Below, one piece after another: positions 21,645 through 24,615 of a stretch of 39,466 nt of DNA (within the stretch, counting starts at the first letter, position 1; the number at the start of each line of letters is the position of its first letter). The stretch lies in the sequence record PZ445457.1, one strand, 5' to 3'. A program made the position numbers and the translations under genes. The stretch comes from a phage. The notes beneath the pieces were generated by a model. It searched no databases. It was not told the origin of the DNA and worked only from the letters and a program-made list of their open reading frames with translations.

Positions 21645-21725
21645 ATGCTATTTCTTATTGCTGCTGTTATCTTTGCCACGTTCGCCTTCGTTATCATTGA
21701 CGACAACTGCTGGCCTGATTGCTAA
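21645..21725 (+). CDS. Hypothetical hydrophobic peptide (26 aa)
   Basis: RBS ggagga 8 nt upstream; MLFLIAAVIFATFAFVIIDDNCWPDC; T7 gene 1.4/1.5 region. Confidence 0.3.
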   Translation: MLFLIAAVIFATFAFVIIDDNCWPDC

Positions 21726-21745
21726 TACGACTCACCTATGGAGGA
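21723..21745 (+). promoter_or_regulatory. Degenerate phage promoter-like sequence
   Basis: taatacgactcacctatggagga; -17 to -5 perfect, -4 to +4 diverged. Confidence 0.35.
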
Positions 21746-21752
21746 AACACTT

Positions 21753-22016
21753 ATGTTACGACTACACTTCAACAAATCAAATGGCATCTTCTCTGCCCGT
21801 GGCGCTGACCGTTCAACCGTTCTGGCCTCTGAGAAACATGCAGTCATCCCTAAAGTGCTTGGCTCGACCATTGAGTTAGCACCTCGTGTTCATGCTGTAA
21901 TCACCACTGGCTTATATAAAGAAGCGACCACTGGCTCCCGGCCTTTCATTCCGGTTCTCGTCACCCGTTTCCCTAAAGTCCGTCTGGTAATTGCGCGTAT
22001 CAAGGAGGTGTTCTAA
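21753..22016 (+). CDS. gp1.6-like protein (87 aa)
   Basis: ATG after RBS ggagga; MLRLHFNKSNGIFSARGADRS...; assigned by position and size in the gene 1.6 slot. Confidence 0.6.
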   Translation: MLRLHFNKSNGIFSARGADRSTVLASEKHAVIPKVLGSTIELAPRVHAVITTGLYKEATTGSRPFIPVLVTRFPKVRLVIARIKEVF

Positions 22017-22327
22017 TGGTCTGCATGGCATGTTTAGAGAATGATGACCGCTACCCACATACCTGTGAACCTGTAGCTAAACCACAAGATATAGAGGGTG
22101 TTCGCAAGCCGAGCCACTATATGTTGTTTGATGACATTGAGGCTATCGAAGTGATTGCCCGTTCGATGACCCGTGAACAGTTCAAAGGTTACTGCTTAGG
22201 GAACATCCTTAAGTATCGCCTACGTGCTGGGAAGAAATCCGAACTGGCATTCTTAGAGAAGGACATGGCGAAAGCTGGGTTCTATGGTGAACTGTACGAG
22301 AAACATAAGGACAAGTGCCATGCTTAA
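22016..22327 (+). CDS. gene 1.7: gp1.7-like protein, short form (103 aa) of the T7 nucleotide kinase
   Basis: CLENDDRYPHTC and KPSHYMLFDDIEAIEVIARSMTREQFKGYCLGNILKYRLRAGKKSELAFLEKDMAKA match recalled segments of T7 gp1.7 (about 196 aa); central region absent. Confidence 0.8.
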   Translation: MVCMACLENDDRYPHTCEPVAKPQDIEGVRKPSHYMLFDDIEAIEVIARSMTREQFKGYCLGNILKYRLRAGKKSELAFLEKDMAKAGFYGELYEKHKDKCHA

Positions 22328-22427
22328 TGACATTCTGTATTTTGTACTCATCTGTGCTGGAATGGGTACACTACTTCGTTTAATGTATTGGGCTATAGAG
22401 GTGGAATATGGTAAAACCAAGTGAATG
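22320..22427 (+). CDS. Hypothetical small membrane peptide (35 aa), gene 1.8 position
   Basis: ATG overlapping the 3' end of gene 1.7; MLNDILYFVLICAGMGTLLRLMYWAIEVEYGKTK. Confidence 0.3.
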
Positions 22428-22502
22428 GTGTGAACGTATGTTCGAAAAGACGGGCAACGTTGACTATCTCGAAATGTATAACTATTGGAAAGGGAAAGGA
22501 CT

Positions 22503-22694
22503 ATGAGCAACTTAAACAAAGGGTCACTAGTAAACGGTGACAAGAAGTTCTTCGCAACGGTCGAAGGCCAAGGCCAATCGTTCGAAGTCCCTGTGTTCGC
22601 TGCGTCTCTTGAAGAGGCCAACGAGTTAGCTGAATGGCAGTATGTTCCGGCTGGCTTCGCAGTGACACGCATCCGTCCAGACCGAAAGGTTTAA
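22503..22694 (+). CDS. gene 2: gp2, inhibitor of host RNA polymerase (63 aa)
   Basis: [59 protein letters not shown] matches recalled T7 Gp2; start is an internal ATG of the 22485 track ORF. Confidence 0.9.
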
Positions 22695-22714
22695 TAGGAC
22701 TCACTATTGGGAGA
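22692..22714 (+). promoter_or_regulatory. Phage RNAP promoter (phi2.5-like; -12 G variant)
   Basis: taataggactcactattgggaga. Confidence 0.7.
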
Positions 22715-22763
22715 CACATCGTTTCCCAACTTTTAACTTTCAGAAACTTTAAGGAGAAACATC

Positions 22764-23462
22764 ATGGCTTTCAACAAACGTAAAGTATTCACTTCCGCTC
22801 GTGGCGTTGCTGAACCATACTGCTATCTGGCTAAACCGGACTTCGGTAGCGGTGACTTCAAGAACGAACGCGGTGTCTACAAGGTGTCACTTACTGTATC
22901 CAACGACGACCCTCGCTGTCAGAAAATGATTGACGAGATTGTCGAAGCCCATGAAGCGGACTATGCTGCTCGTCTCGAAGAGTATGAAGCGAACCCGCCG
23001 AAAGTTGTCAAGGGTAAGAAACCGCTGAAGCCGTATGTTGGCGACATGCCTTTCATGGATAACGAAGACGGAACCACTACGTTCAACTTCAAGTGCTACG
23101 GCTCGTTCACTGACAAGAAGACTGGTGAGAACAAACCAATCGACTTGGCTATCGTGGACTCCAAGGGCAAGCGCATTCGTGGCGAACGTCCAGCTATCTC
23201 TGGCGGCTCTGAACTGAAAATCAAATACACCCTGTTCCCTTATGGCTGGTCTGCTGTGGCTGGTGCATCCGTTAAGCTGCAACTGGATTCTGTGATGCTG
23301 ATTAAGCTGGTCGAGTTCGGCGGTGGTGATGATGATTGGGGTGATGAAGTCGAAGAAGACGGTTATGTAGCTGATGAAGCACAGACCCGCACGCCGCAGA
23401 ACGACTCTGGCTGGGACGAAGAACCAGAAGAGGACGATGAAGACGAAGACGGTGACTTCTAA
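22764..23462 (+). CDS. gene 2.5: Single-stranded DNA-binding protein gp2.5 (232 aa)
   Basis: Collinear with recalled T7 gp2.5; acidic C-terminal tail ending ...DEDEDGDF with terminal Phe. Confidence 0.97.
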   Translation: MAFNKRKVFTSARGVAEPYCYLAKPDFGSGDFKNERGVYKVSLTVSNDDPRCQKMIDEIVEAHEADYAARLEEYEANPPKVVKGKKPLKPYVGDMPFMDNEDGTTTFNFKCYGSFTDKKTGENKPIDLAIVDSKGKRIRGERPAISGGSELKIKYTLFPYGWSAVAGASVKLQLDSVMLIKLVEFGGGDDDWGDEVEEDGYVADEAQTRTPQNDSGWDEEPEEDDEDEDGDF

Positions 23463-23908
23463 TGGCTAAGGGTTATGCAGGTCGAGGCACTCGTGTGGGT
23501 GCCTTTCGCTCTGGCTTGGAGGATAAGGTAAGCAAGCAACTCGAAGGGAAGAACATTAAGTTCGACTACGAGCGTTGGCGTGTACCATATGTTGTTCCTG
23601 CAAGCAACCATACCTATTGCCCGGACTTCCTGTTACCTAATGGCATCTTTGTGGAAACAAAGGGTCTGTGGGATAGTGACGACCGCAAGAAACACTTACT
23701 GATTCGTGAACAGTATCCTGAACTTGATGTGCGCATCGTGTTCTCTTCTAGTCGCTCCAAGCTGTACAAAGGGTCTCCGACCAGTTATGGCGAGTGGTGT
23801 GAGAAGCATGGCATTCTGTTTGCTGACAAATTAATTCCAGTTGATTGGCTTAAAGAGCCTTCTAAGGATGTTCCATTCGATAAATTTAAAGAGGTGAAGA
23901 AGAAATGA
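23462..23908 (+). CDS. gene 3: Endonuclease I (Holliday junction resolvase) gp3 (148 aa)
   Basis: VGAFRSGLEDKVSKQLE...PASNHTY.PDFLLPNGIFVETKGLW.SDDRKKHLLIREQ matches recalled T7 gp3. Confidence 0.97.
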   Translation: MAKGYAGRGTRVGAFRSGLEDKVSKQLEGKNIKFDYERWRVPYVVPASNHTYCPDFLLPNGIFVETKGLWDSDDRKKHLLIREQYPELDVRIVFSSSRSKLYKGSPTSYGEWCEKHGILFADKLIPVDWLKEPSKDVPFDKFKEVKKK

Positions 23909-24360
23909 GTAAGGTACAATTCAAACCACGCGCTGTGACAGAAGCAATCTTTGTGCACTGTAGCGCAACTAAGGCGACCATGAACGTGGGTCTGCGTGAA
24001 ATCCGTCAGTGGCATAAAGAACAGGGCTGGCTTGATGTAGGCTACCACTTCATTATTCGCCGCGATGGTACAATCGAAGAAGGCCGTCCGGTCGATGTCG
24101 TTGGGTCTCACGTTAAGGACTGGAACAGTAAGTCAGTCGGTGTGTGCCTCGTTGGTGGTATCGACGATAAGGGCAGACACGAAGCTAACTTTACGCCAGC
24201 ACAGATGCACTCTCTGAAAGAGAAACTTGCAGACCTGCTGGACATGTATCCAGATGCTGAAGTGAAAGCTCACCATGACGTTGCACCTAAAGCGTGTCCG
24301 TCTTTCAACTTGAGTCGCTGGCTGAAAACTGGCGAATTAGTAACTAGTGATTGGGGTTAA
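23905..24360 (+). CDS. gene 3.5: N-acetylmuramoyl-L-alanine amidase (T7 lysozyme) gp3.5 (151 aa)
   Basis: AIFVHCSATK...REIRQWHKEQGWLDVGYHFII.RDGT...SIGVCLVGGIDDKG...ANFTPAQM...HH.VAPKACPSF matches recalled T7 gp3.5. Confidence 0.97.
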   Translation: MSKVQFKPRAVTEAIFVHCSATKATMNVGLREIRQWHKEQGWLDVGYHFIIRRDGTIEEGRPVDVVGSHVKDWNSKSVGVCLVGGIDDKGRHEANFTPAQMHSLKEKLADLLDMYPDAEVKAHHDVAPKACPSFNLSRWLKTGELVTSDWG

Positions 24361-24365
24361 ACACT

Positions 24366-24458
24366 ATGATGATTATTCACGAGATGGGCCTGTACGATTT
24401 GATTTATCGCCTCGCGTTCATGCTGGCAATGGTCTACATTCTGACCCGCAAGGATTAA
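24366..24458 (+). CDS. Hypothetical small hydrophobic peptide (30 aa)
   Basis: MMIIHEMGLYDLIYRLAFMLAMVYILTRKD; between lysozyme and primase genes; no strong RBS. Confidence 0.25.
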   Translation: MMIIHEMGLYDLIYRLAFMLAMVYILTRKD

Positions 24459-24478
24459 TAGAACTCACTATGGGAGGA
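24456..24478 (+). promoter_or_regulatory. Degenerate phage promoter-like sequence (phi3.8/phi4-like)
   Basis: taatagaactcactatgggagga; deviates at -12/-11 and is one nt short before GGGA. Confidence 0.4.
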
Positions 24479-24528
24479 CCGAAAGGTTTCTCCCTTTGTT
24501 CGCTAAAATTGTATAAGGAGTAACCACT

Positions 24529-24615
24529 ATGCGTAAGCTATTTGGTGAAGCACTTCCGGTGACACTTCTGGTCATCATCATTATCGTTTGTGGCGCACTG
24601 CGTCCGTTCCTGTAG
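24529..24615 (+). CDS. Hypothetical small membrane peptide (28 aa)
   Basis: Strong RBS taaggag 8 nt upstream; [28 protein letters not shown]. Confidence 0.4.

Follow-up and report, generated by a model that had tools for sequence, protein, structure and literature searches.

Five very short open reading frames in the genome of a T7-like phage are, as judged from comparative sequence analysis, real and conserved genes for predicted single-helix membrane peptides rather than chance frames. They lie in sequence record PZ445457.1 (39,466 nucleotides; the window), which is a circularly permuted genome of a Berlinvirus, a T7 relative of the BA14/285P/Kvp1 group. ORF1 is gene 1.5, ORF2 is gene 1.75, ORF3 and ORF4 are two unnamed genes and ORF5 is gene 6.3. 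The sequence does contain each of the small hydrophobic ORFs listed in the initial annotation; the coordinates given there for ORF1, ORF3 and ORF4 were kept, those of the end of ORF2 (and with it the length) and of the start of ORF5 had to be corrected. The ORFs are already known, since the exact peptides of all five are present in public protein databases, and curated records list all five. In most deposited genomes the five peptides were left unannotated, and only in that sense (many GenBank records) are the ORFs "below cutoff".

All five ORFs code for protein and are subject to purifying selection; their products are hydrophobic and helical, and the genes are syntenic with named genes of the T7 group. 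We propose, with a probability of roughly 0.65, that they are protein-coding class II genes whose products would be dispensable single-pass inner-membrane microproteins with partner-contacting tails.

Evidence for Coding

For each gap 5000 dinucleotide-preserving shuffles were searched for a hydrophobic ATG-ORF as long as the observed one. Such an ORF arose in 1.6% of the shuffles of gap A, 0.1% of gap B and 1.2% of gap D; in gap C one arose in 3.6% and two in 0 of 5000. The window has, both strands counted, 252 ATG-ORFs of 19–60 aa; a hydrophobic core together with a Shine-Dalgarno sequence is seen in just three of them, namely ORF1, ORF4 and the 28-aa form of ORF5. In the annotated frame pN/pS is 0.30 (ORF1), 0.12 (ORF2), 0.21 (ORF3) and 0.20 (ORF4), in each case the lowest of the three frames, and 0.36 in the part of ORF5 that does not overlap gene 6. 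The pooled variable sites of ORF1–4 number 28, 12 and 48 at the three codon positions (third-position skew, P = 1.5e-5), and in the hydrophobic cores 46 of 47 replacements are membrane-compatible versus 75% expected (P = 2e-5). The frame is intact in 22/22 Berlinvirus loci for ORF1, 10/10 for ORF2 and 18/18 for ORF3 (both where present) and 21/21 for ORF4, plus a diverged ORF4 allele in locus L015. The initial annotation had held that the ORFs could be spurious and had named frame conservation with synonymous bias in relatives as a check; the outcome was positive and speaks against spurious frames.

Conservation extends to the slots. Between ligase and gene 1.6 a hydrophobic ORF with a Shine-Dalgarno sequence is found in 19/19 loci of Berlinvirus and 48/61 of other Studiervirinae; between genes 6 and 6.5 the figures are 13/14 and 40/60, respectively. 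Both slots are kept despite little sequence identity of their ORFs.

That the ORFs arose by chance in intergenic DNA and stay unexpressed has therefore hardly any probability left, although they are very short, automatic annotation omits ORF3 and ORF4 in most deposited genomes, and ORF3 has no canonical Shine-Dalgarno sequence. Such a reading is already contradicted by the comparative sequence data, that is by frame conservation, codon-position bias, pN/pS and the slots conserved across Studiervirinae, and it is opposed by the shuffle tests, the window-wide ORF background and the experimental phenotypes reported in T7/T3 for the counterparts of two ORFs (see below).

Gene 1.5

ORF1 (21645–21725, plus strand; 26 aa, MLFLIAAVIFATFAFVIIDDNCWPDC) is annotated as gp1.5 in BA14, 285P, Kvp1 and PhiV-1 and matches phrog_10145 with E = 7e-17; the initial annotation had placed it in the gap of T7 1.4/1.5, and alignment with T3 and T7 gp1.5 bears out gene 1.5. 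The promoter phi1.5 (CTATACGACTCACTATGGAGGAA; 21615–21637, plus strand), which maps onto the annotated phi1.5 of BA14 and Kvp1, gives a transcript with a 13-nt leader ahead of ORF1, at the 5′ end of which lies the ribosome-binding site GGAGG, 9 nt upstream of the start. Promoter phi1.6 (21723–21745, plus strand; BA14 annotation mapped to the window, core match 21730–21744) starts at the ORF1 stop codon.

Gene 1.5 of T7 and T3 occupies the same slot, after ligase and the terminator TE and between phi1.5 and phi1.6, and in T7 the spacing from promoter (7778) to gene (7791) is also 13 nt. In ORF1 a hydrophobic helix (residues 2–18) is followed by an acidic, Pro-containing tail, and the T7 (29 aa) and T3 (25 aa) proteins are alike in size and architecture (Met, about 17 hydrophobic residues, DD, Pro). 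T3 gp1.5 ends in ...DDNIWPDC, ORF1 in ...DDNCWPDC, whereas T7 gp1.5 is only about 35% identical to ORF1 and belongs to PHROG 12128 (T7 type) instead of PHROG 10145 (Berlinvirus/T3 type). The tail DDNCWPDC has a pN/pS of 0.02 (pS 0.38) versus 0.52 in the TM segment of gp1.5.

In minimal medium the expression of T7 gp1.5 on its own is toxic, an effect that stringent-like RNAP alleles suppress, and two-hybrid assays with gp1.5 gave no consistent interaction with RelA, SpoT or RpoZ (bioRxiv 10.64898/2026.01.27.700999). Knockouts of gene 1.5 arose under selection, in parallel, in T3 and T7 from which ligase had been deleted (PMC2696425). The toxicity and the selected-knockout phenotypes are from T7/T3, not from a Berlinvirus.

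Gene 1.75

ORF2 (22320–22424, plus strand; 34 aa, MLNDILYFVLICAGMGTLLRLMYWAIEVEYGKTK) is gene 1.75 in the nomenclature of K1F (phrog_29660, E = 1e-24). It had been described as 35 aa ending at 22427, but it has 34 residues and ends, stop included, at 22424. The ATG, served by the ribosome-binding site AAGGA, overlaps the stop codon of gene 1.7 (ATGCTTAA), and the 3′ end overlaps the start of gene 1.8 by 17 nt. Full-length tblastn matches were found in 72 phage records from several genera, among them K1F (NC_007636), where the label is "1.75: gp1.75 protein". The K1F gene product (PHROG 29660) is 85% identical to ORF2 over the full length and its gene likewise lies between genes 1.7 and 1.8; there is no difference of substance. 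The variable sites of ORF2 number 5, 1 and 12 by codon position.

The initial annotation had placed ORF2 in the gap of T7 gene 1.8. ORF2 is not the 1.8 equivalent: the homologue of 1.8 is the next ORF (22408–22506, plus strand; 32 aa; phrog_1312, E = 7e-12), annotated as gp1.8 in BA14, 285P and PhiV-1, whose product is not hydrophobic. Gene 1.75 is accessory, with a patchy occurrence in Berlinvirus, Kayfunavirus, Teseptimavirus-type phages and other Studiervirinae; it is absent from BA14, Kvp1 and T7 itself, as well as from other relatives compared.

The Genes Between 3.5 and 4

ORF3 (24366–24458, plus strand; 30 aa, MMIIHEMGLYDLIYRLAFMLAMVYILTRKD) is annotated with "unknown product" in BA14 (AS7_0017), 285P (LXB_017), ErnstBeyeler and CECAV_058. 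Only GGGG is available as ribosome-binding site, but the start lies 5 nt past the stop of the amidase gene (3.5); the 3′ end is inside the next promoter. ORF3 matches phrog_25602 (E = 5e-21), occurs in 40 phage records and has two allelic types, and the BA14 and 285P peptides (PHROG 25602) are 76–100% identical to it at the equal position. Its N-terminal 11 residues have a pN/pS of 0.05 versus 0.37 in its helix. In loci L009, L014, L015 and L016 it is missing as a clean cassette deletion.

The promoter upstream of gene 4 (24455–24477, plus strand; pattern match 24456–24477), the equivalent of T7/T3 phi3.8 and annotated in BA14 and in Kvp1 (there as "phi4A"), is invariant in the alignment. Its transcript begins with a hairpin (GGGAGGACCGAAAGGUUUCUCCC; 24472–24494, plus strand), the stem of which is predicted in both the MFE and the centroid structure and which is conserved across relatives. 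At the matching place T3 has an annotated RNase III site (R3.8, stem_loop), so that RNase III may cleave at the GGGAGGACCGAAAGGUUUCUCCC hairpin.

ORF4 (24529–24615, plus strand; 28 aa) is annotated as "unknown" in BA14 (AS7_0018), 285P (LXB_018), PhiV-1 and FE44. The TAAGGAG before 24529, cited in the initial annotation as an example of a good ribosome-binding site, was seen 8 nt upstream, and the stop codon (TAG) overlaps the Shine-Dalgarno sequence of gene 4, 10 nt ahead of the gene 4 ATG at 24626. ORF4 matches phrog_25193 (E = 3e-22) and occurs in 49 phage records, mostly unannotated there; the BA14 and 285P peptides (PHROG 25193) are 93–100% identical at the equal position. The ORF is present in all Berlinvirus loci. 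In BP12A it carries an in-frame 12-nt duplication, and the L015 allele is diverged in the interior, with compensating indels, while frame, Shine-Dalgarno sequence and hydrophobicity are kept.

Conservation of the DNA is unusually high around ORF4 (pS 0.065 versus about 0.25 in the flanks; pi 0.007–0.009 at 24505–24564). Because ORF4 lies in this nucleotide-conserved island, its conservation within Berlinvirus could be due in part to a DNA or RNA element, and with only 10 variable sites its synonymous-bias test is weak.

ORF3 and ORF4 had been placed in the gap of T7 gene 3.8. They do occupy its slot, the gap between genes 3.5 and 4, which they also share with T3 gene 3.7 (35 aa), but they are related to neither, differing in sequence, size and character. 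T7 gp3.8 is a 121-aa HNH endonuclease, and T3 gp3.7, to which ORF3 has no relation, is Cys-rich and not hydrophobic. Across Studiervirinae the slots after ligase and after amidase are repeatedly occupied by unrelated membrane microproteins.

From the arrangement of these genes one could argue that the ORFs are translated but their peptides irrelevant, the ORFs being upstream or spacer frames whose translation merely sets how strongly the following gene is expressed (gene 4 behind ORF4, gene 1.8 behind ORF2), a run-on from gene 3.5 (ORF3), or filling between promoters. The position of the ORF4 stop, the overlap of ORF2 with the 1.8 start, the 5 nt between the 3.5 stop and ORF3, and a nucleotide conservation of the ORF4 region exceeding what coding explains would all agree with this. 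We nevertheless hold it to be quite improbable, as amino-acid constraint is measurable (pN/pS 0.12–0.36, with the membrane-compatible core replacements), the tails hardly vary even though synonymous changes occur, and the L015 allele of ORF4 is still hydrophobic though its interior DNA is rewritten. Moreover, ORF3 has been cleanly deleted and ORF2 replaced with the downstream gene kept, so that neither is needed for downstream expression.

Gene 6.3

ORF5 had been given as 19 aa from 31469. An in-frame ATG at 31442 with AAGGAG 8 nt upstream extends it to 28 aa (MVAGTVAFVMFAIVAFAMVWAAFIAKSV; 31442–31528, plus strand), and this exact peptide is deposited as "gp6.3 [Escherichia phage BA14]" and annotated in ErnstBeyeler. 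The ORF shares 28 nt with the 3′ terminus of gene 6 (exonuclease) and is followed by phi6.5 (31556–31577, plus strand; pattern match with 1 mismatch), with the T7/T3 phi6.5 at the equal place. The T7 6.3 gap named in the initial annotation is thus right, and slot and offset agree: T7/T3 gene 6.3 (37 aa; Pfam DUF5516, PHROG 11345) also starts inside gene 6 at its 3′ end, preceded by AAGGAG, ends ahead of phi6.5 and encodes a single hydrophobic helix. ORF5 is, however, 9 residues shorter and without the basic C-terminal tail (...ARIIKSLHDTK). Since it gave no match to DUF5516 or the PHROGs and is only 14–25% identical to T7/T3 gp6.3, homology is positional only.

Of 14 non-redundant Berlinvirus loci, 13 have gene 6.3 intact; in L015 it is destroyed. 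Constraint on the gene is weak (variable sites 7, 5 and 8 by codon position in the non-overlapping part); in the non-overlapping core 13 of 13 replacements are hydrophobic or small. In T7 a missense change in 6.3 altered the lysis time (PMC2680503).

Hydrophobicity and Proposed Role

Each product of 26–34 residues consists essentially of one hydrophobic α-helix, to which a very short polar tail is attached. The description as TM-like in the initial annotation agrees with a Kyte-Doolittle maximum over 15 residues of 2.1–3.0 in all five. In each there is also a stretch whose Hessa-type insertion energies sum to less than 0, marginally so in ORF3 (−0.07, Arg mid-segment), as compared to about +16 to +17 for the soluble controls gp1.8 and T3 gp3.7. 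AlphaFold2 predicted one helix each for ORF2 (residues 2–33, pLDDT 91) and ORF3 (residues 2–29, pLDDT 90).

From these sequence properties we infer membrane insertion, topology, partner binding and a physiological role as follows. The phage RNA polymerase would transcribe the five ORFs as middle (class II) genes from class II promoters; ORF1, ORF4 and ORF5 would be translated from their own Shine-Dalgarno sequences, ORF2 and ORF3 by coupling to the upstream gene. The peptides would enter the host inner membrane as single-pass microproteins and act as dispensable accessory modulators that bind a host or phage membrane partner, the helix serving as anchor and the conserved tail, DDNCWPDC in gp1.5, MMIIHEMGxYD in ORF3 and GALRPFL in ORF4, conferring specificity. 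As many close relatives lack ORF2 and ORF3, probably none of the five is essential. Gene 6.3, of which only the hydrophobicity is conserved, more likely acts via the membrane generically, e.g., on lysis timing.

The type I toxin peptides (TisB, ShoB, Ibs and the Hok family) and the single-gene lysis peptides of RNA phages are comparable in length and hydrophobicity. The five peptides, which in size and hydrophobicity are within the range of type I toxins and holin-type proteins, could likewise be non-specific membrane-active agents that lower the potential or integrity of the inner membrane without a defined protein partner, with an effect on host shut-off, exclusion of superinfecting phages or lysis timing. 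We consider this unlikely. It would fit that unrelated TM peptides swap within the same slots, that T7 gp1.5 alone inhibits growth, that gene 6.3 keeps only its hydrophobic character without positional conservation across lineages, and that the T7 6.3 missense change shifted lysis time (PMC2680503). But the tails of gp1.5 and ORF3 are far more constrained than their helices, and a lipid-directed action needs no such tails; the medium dependence of T7 gp1.5 toxicity and its suppression by RNAP alleles are unlike simple membrane damage. Also the T7 group has a dedicated holin (gene 17.5), which sits elsewhere in these genomes. The toxin and lysis peptides have no sequence similarity to the five ORFs, and the latter are without antisense-RNA context. 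Because the polar tails are conserved, we argue for specific contacts rather than toxin-like action, i.e., for partner-binding microproteins.

Such a mode is that of AcrZ, MgrB, SgrT, KdpF and CydX, small inner-membrane proteins of bacteria which with a single TM helix bind larger membrane proteins; they have no sequence relationship to the phage peptides and are an analogy only. Equally an analogy without sequence relationship is Gp11 of the staphylococcal phage PhiNM1, a small phage membrane protein that is described to inhibit peptidoglycan synthesis and cell division (PMC11237401).

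The five reading frames

With its 39,466 bp the window covers the whole genome, in circularly permuted form, of a T7-like phage in the genus Berlinvirus (BA14/285P/Kvp1/Berlin group); it starts within the late region and wraps past the genome ends, with class III genes at 1-13000 and early genes from about 14600. In the region under study, identity is 97.8% to Salmonella phage vB_CECAV_058 and 92-96% to PhiV-1, PYPS50, Carena, 285P, Kvp1 and BA14, and the gene order is ligase (1.3), 1.5, 1.6, 1.7, 1.8, 2, 2.5, 3, 3.5 and 4. The five small hydrophobic ORFs (ORF1 to ORF5) that the initial annotation had pointed out do exist and are hydrophobic; the coordinates proposed for ORF2 and ORF5 were wrong. 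All five sit in the class II DNA-metabolism region, away from the late lysis genes. In a mechanical ORF list gene 1.6 starts at ATG 21738, inside promoter phi1.6, and gene 4 at GTG 24590; annotated relatives place the true starts at ATG 21753 and ATG 24626, respectively.

The five ORFs are more than chance. When the individual gaps were shuffled with dinucleotides preserved, hydrophobic ATG-ORFs as long as those observed arose in 1.6%, 0.1%, 3.6% and 1.2% of the trials, and two such ORFs in the 3.6% gap in none of 5000 shuffles. The two strands of the window together have 252 ATG-ORFs of 19-60 aa, and only 3 of these have a hydrophobic core as well as a Shine-Dalgarno sequence, namely ORF1, ORF4 and the 28-aa form of ORF5; a scan of the other gaps of the window yielded no more candidates of this kind.

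The ORFs were compared with 80 related IMG/VR loci and with annotated genomes including T7 and T3 (L-numbers); locus L091 (MZ501065, the T4-like phage FelixPlatter) was left out of the later analysis. Pfam and NCBIfam profiles placed none of the five in a family, the sole NCBIfam match (LH1 beta, E = 0.79) being noise. A tblastn search of the phage collection with ORF1 and ORF5 returned no match, which we put down to BLAST's low-complexity filtering of such hydrophobic queries, since both ORFs are recovered by blastn in 17-22 loci; the empty result is no sign of absence.

Gene 1.5

ORF1 (21645-21725) lies past the DNA ligase gene and the early terminator, flanked by promoters phi1.5 and phi1.6. 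The phi1.5 transcript has a leader of 13 nt, the same as in T7, and carries the Shine-Dalgarno sequence of ORF1 (GGAGG) at its extreme 5' end. The product falls in the 25-29 aa range of gp1.5 and has a hydrophobic helix at the N-terminus and, behind it, an acidic tail that contains Pro (net charge of the C-flank -3, as compared with -3 in T3 and -4 in T7). It matches phrog_10145 (E = 7e-17), aligns clearly with T3 gp1.5 (MWLILFAIVATLGLMVADDNIWPDC, 52% identity) and has its architecture in common with T7 gp1.5 (MMYLMPLLIVIVGCLALHCSDDDMPDGHA) and with the Klebsiella-phage type (MSINLILIIVFILAAIVWSMNDEPPKGA). A gp1.5 is annotated at this place in BA14, 285P, Kvp1 and PhiV-1, and the exact ORF1 peptide is Gp1.5 of PhiV-1. 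The initial proposal of gene 1.5 for ORF1 thus agrees with slot, architecture and sequence similarity to named gp1.5, and we assign the ORF to this gene. A 90-aa TTG ORF (21607-21879) spanning gene 1.5 is spurious.

Selection on gp1.5 differs sharply along the peptide. The tail DDNCWPDC (residues 19-26; 21699-21722) is near-invariant at the protein level and shows frequent synonymous codon change (pN/pS 0.02 at pS 0.38, with one C to Y replacement among 15 alleles), as against a pN/pS of 0.52 in the helix, the changes of which stay among hydrophobic residues.

In some lineages (L053, L060, L076, L078, L083 and T7) gene 1.5 is accompanied by a second small TM ORF right past the ligase stop. In Klebsiella-type phages this ORF is MTPLEITLTCILVFIFGTVVGFYGACD, and T7 has the 51-aa gene 1.4 (L085, 1809-1964). 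Berlinviruses have gene 1.5 alone in this gap or, in 285P-like genomes, also a 60-aa non-hydrophobic ORF, and in phage P483 (L009) a 119-aa HNH-type endonuclease ORF is inserted between ligase and gene 1.5.

Gene 1.75

ORF2, listed initially as 35 aa, has 34 aa and ends, stop included, at 22424 (22320-22424); its ATG overlaps the stop of gene 1.7. It matches phrog_29660 over its full length (E = 1.3e-24), is situated between genes 1.7 and 1.8, and is 85% identical to a K1F locus annotated 1.75, from which we adopt the name gene 1.75. Matches were found in 72 phage records from several genera; a contig lookup for the exact product gave no record. The assignment to gene 1.8 was not upheld: phrog_29660 was the only family matched, and ORF2 has no similarity to gp1.8 (…SEWC…LY..WK.RG motif; PHROG 1312). 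The gene 1.8 homologue is the neighboring ORF 22408-22506, which matches phrog_1312 and is the gp1.8 of BA14 and 285P.

ORF2 is an accessory gene. It is absent in BA14, Kvp1, Carena and ErnstBeyeler, and in three loci (L009, L011 and L012) an unrelated acidic 57-aa ORF (MIIKVEYVGEDDMMALVKRHD...) takes its place between genes 1.7 and 1.8. In L024, a locus like that of Citrobacter phage SH3 with a ligase about 50% identical to that of the window, the ORF2 peptide (8235-8339) does not differ from the one in the Berlinviruses BP12A and PYPS50, and gene 1.8 is closely related, which suggests that genera have exchanged the 1.75-1.8 module.

ORF3, ORF4 and the nucleotide-level island at ORF4

ORF3 (24366-24458) starts 5 nt past the stop of gene 3.5 behind a weak Shine-Dalgarno sequence (GGGG only). 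ORF4 (24529-24615) is preceded by the strong ribosome binding site TAAGGAG that had been noted at the outset and that we confirm in the sequence. The two ORFs are the genes of "unknown product" AS7_0017/0018 in BA14 and LXB_017/018 in 285P; ORF3 matches phrog_25602 and 40 phage records, ORF4 phrog_25193 and 49 phage records, in the majority of which they are unannotated. A correspondence to T7 gene 3.8 had been suggested and had to be given up, T7 gp3.8 being a 121-aa HNH endonuclease and ORF3 and ORF4 encoding 30 and 28 aa without a Pfam match; the nuclease domain of about 120 aa is missing and there is no relation. T3 gene 3.7 has the same position as ORF3, but its product is Cys-rich, non-hydrophobic and without similarity. 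In Shigella phage VB_Ship_A7 (MK685668/NC_048180) a 30-aa ORF3 homologue (29156-29245) is labelled "carbohydrate ABC transporter permease"; this name has almost certainly been carried over in error to a short hydrophobic peptide. In Klebsiella-type phages the peptides encoded directly before gene 4 (MENLKQH...GALRVWLP) align suggestively with ORF4, a lead to homology from peptides too short to establish it.

In ORF3, too, one end is nearly fixed, the first 11 residues having a pN/pS of 0.05 vs. 0.37 in the helix. For ORF4 a caveat applies. The ORF and its leader are about 98% identical among Berlinviruses, and synonymous divergence is 0.065 in ORF4 vs. about 0.25 in genes 3.5 and 4, hence about 4-fold lower. 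A diversity scan gave a pi of 0.007-0.009 at 24505-24564 vs. 0.08-0.2 in adjoining coding DNA. This minimum lies in a conserved nucleotide-level island (about 24445-24680) that comprises the pre-gene-4 promoter, its 5' hairpin, the Shine-Dalgarno sequence of ORF4, ORF4 itself and, at the start of gene 4, approximately 55 nt. Something beyond the ORF4 peptide is conserved there, for which the promoter, the 5' hairpin (with an annotated RNase III site at the equivalent place in T3), translation initiation of ORF4/gene 4 and recombinational homogenisation are candidates. RNA structure as the cause of ORF4 conservation is not supported, the fold of 24472-24650 being, the 5' hairpin apart, not unusually stable (z = -0.57).

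ORF4 is nevertheless coding, since its Shine-Dalgarno sequence is strong, BP12A carries an in-frame 12-nt duplication, and in L015 (IMGVR_UViG_2700988866) the interior of the gene has been rewritten with compensating indels, the frame, the Shine-Dalgarno sequence, the hydrophobic core and the end ...LRPFL being preserved (MYNLKEHVFVILICVLIIGGACLRPFL).

Gene 6.3

ORF5 was initially read as a 19-aa frame. An upstream in-frame ATG at 31442, located 8 nt past AAGGAG, extends it to 28 aa (MVAGTVAFVMFAIVAFAMVWAAFIAKSV; 31442-31528). The ORF shares its first 28 nt with the 3' end of gene 6, has its own Shine-Dalgarno sequence and ends before promoter phi6.5. The 28-aa peptide is exactly the gp6.3 deposited for BA14 and is also annotated in ErnstBeyeler. 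The correspondence to gene 6.3 holds in position and in the single hydrophobic helix (residues 6-24; insertion energy -2.96) and fails in the DUF5516 profile: ORF5 gave nothing in Pfam at E ≤ 1, DUF5516 included, to which T7 gp6.3 scores 56.5 bits, and no match in PHROGs. Compared with gp6.3 of T7 and T3, it is shorter and lacks the basic tail. Because neither Pfam nor PHROGs match, ORF5 is filed as the positional counterpart of T7/T3 gene 6.3, outside DUF5516.

The variable sites of gene 6.3 are evenly spread over the three codon positions (7, 5 and 8), and pN/pS in the portion outside the gene 6 overlap is 0.36; the 13 replacements involve no residues other than A, S, T, V, I, L, F and M. 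In L015 (16524-16640) the gene is destroyed by a premature TGA (ATG GTC TCC TGA) and an internal deletion; this phage also has no ORF3, and keeps an intact gene 1.5 besides its strongly diverged ORF4.

Conservation and selection

Conservation of the frames and synonymous bias in relatives, the check proposed in the initial annotation, came out positive for ORF1 to ORF4. Frame disruption in close relatives was encountered once, in the L015 gene 6.3, and for none of the other ORFs. Intact copies are present in 22/22 Berlinvirus loci for ORF1 (15 DNA alleles) and 21/21 for ORF4, in all 18 that carry ORF3 and in all 10 that carry ORF2; loci without ORF2 or ORF3 differ by a clean change of the cassette and show no decay. 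In the annotated frame, which is the lowest of the three in each case, pN/pS is 0.30 for ORF1, 0.12 for ORF2, 0.21 for ORF3 and 0.20 for ORF4. Variable sites pooled over these four ORFs are distributed 28, 12 and 48 over codon positions 1, 2 and 3 (P = 1.5e-5), and 46 of 47 replacements in the hydrophobic cores are membrane-compatible vs. 75% expected from the codons (P = 2e-5). These comparative data exclude chance ORFs. They also bear on the possibility that the ORFs are purely upstream-ORF or translational-coupling elements, against which the constraint at the amino acid level argues, as does the fact that ORF2 and ORF3 are dispensable for their downstream genes; for ORF4 a dual role is possible.

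Possible recurrent slots and proposed mode of action

Between ligase and gene 1.6, 19/19 Berlinvirus and 48/61 other Studiervirinae loci have a hydrophobic ORF with a Shine-Dalgarno sequence; for the gap between gene 3.5 (amidase) and gene 4 (primase) the counts are 19/19 and 32/57, respectively. The latter gap (24361-24625 in the window; L018-L084, e.g., L046, L049, L073 and L074) contains 1-3 such ORFs across Studiervirinae. Their sequences fall into six or more unrelated types, and three of these, the ORF3 type, MITQALIIFGLPILIVGTLYCINKEWFNDGQE and MVYTLFFVLIGLVASTLIAAFIHDMFFNDNY, begin 5-9 nt past the amidase stop. This suggests a recurrent microprotein slot, possibly with a link to the amidase.

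Each of the five products is predicted to be essentially one helix with a membrane-partitioning segment. Structure prediction covered ORF2 and ORF3 (predictor minimum 30 aa, the other three being shorter), for which AlphaFold2 gave single helices with a pLDDT of 90-91; in the best windows of 15-19 residues insertion energies are below 0 in all five, ORF3 being marginal. From the charge distribution our guess is that gp1.5 is oriented N-in, C-out, with the acidic tail outside, and that ORF2, ORF3 and gp6.3 are oriented N-out, C-in; ORF4 is ambiguous.

Many bacterial small membrane proteins dock on a partner via a short segment outside an exchangeable anchor. In gp1.5 and ORF3 the anchor drifts while a short tail stays fixed, and we therefore expect that the helix would serve as an interchangeable membrane anchor and the tail would dock on a specific partner at the membrane surface. 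Non-specific membrane-active peptides of the type I toxin or holin-like kind are a plausible alternative, mainly for gene 6.3, which keeps hydrophobicity alone and may act more generically; for gp1.5 and ORF3 this alternative is disfavored by the tail-focused selection. Both gaps could be dedicated microprotein slots in which unrelated single-helix peptides are gained, swapped between genera and lost, as a fast-evolving accessory layer directed at the host envelope or competing phages; the gp1.5 tail (DDNxWPDC) would be the ligand of a host factor tied to the stringent-response-dependent toxicity of T7 gp1.5, and the post-amidase peptides would be linked in function to the amidase or the control of lysis. 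We give this joint reading a probability of roughly one in five.

Significance and comparison with T7 and T3

The five genes are real and already known, since all are on record, the exact ORF2, ORF3 and ORF5 peptides under bas68_ accessions of Escherichia phage CarlSpitteler; two are discussed in the T7/T3 literature. The finding itself is ordinary, the small genes of the T7 group having been named or at least deposited, and the useful outcome is the correction of the ORF2 and ORF5 coordinates and of the gene correspondences (1.75 rather than 1.8; 3.8 unrelated). The majority of Berlinvirus records omit ORF3 and ORF4 and often genes 1.5 and 6.3; the comparative evidence justifies routine annotation of these genes. 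In the literature consulted we found no statement of the tail-specific selection in gp1.5/ORF3, the nucleotide island at ORF4 or the slot recurrence; these are leads, short of demonstration. As to function, the best-studied phage group has at least five putative membrane microproteins, for which tail-focused selection provides concrete targets for mutagenesis; as to evolution, the refilling of slots by TM peptides without relation to each other points to what may be a general theme in the dealings of T7-like phages with the host envelope.

T7 gp1.5 expressed alone is toxic in minimal medium, the toxicity is suppressed by stringent-like RNAP alleles, and in two-hybrid assays no consistent interaction with RelA, SpoT or RpoZ was observed (bioRxiv 10.64898/2026.01.27.700999). 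The Berlinvirus tail has two Cys in a CxxxC arrangement where the tail of T3 gp1.5 has one. Ligase-deleted T3 and T7 underwent parallel selection for knockouts of gene 1.5 (PMC2696425), and a missense change in gene 6.3 of evolved T7 shortened the lysis time (PMC2680503). T7-group gp6.3 is classed as non-essential, yet was not among the genes that came out as removable from a genome-reduction screen. By analogy, these experiments on the T7/T3 counterparts would fit a non-essential, physiology-modulating role of the Berlinvirus peptides.
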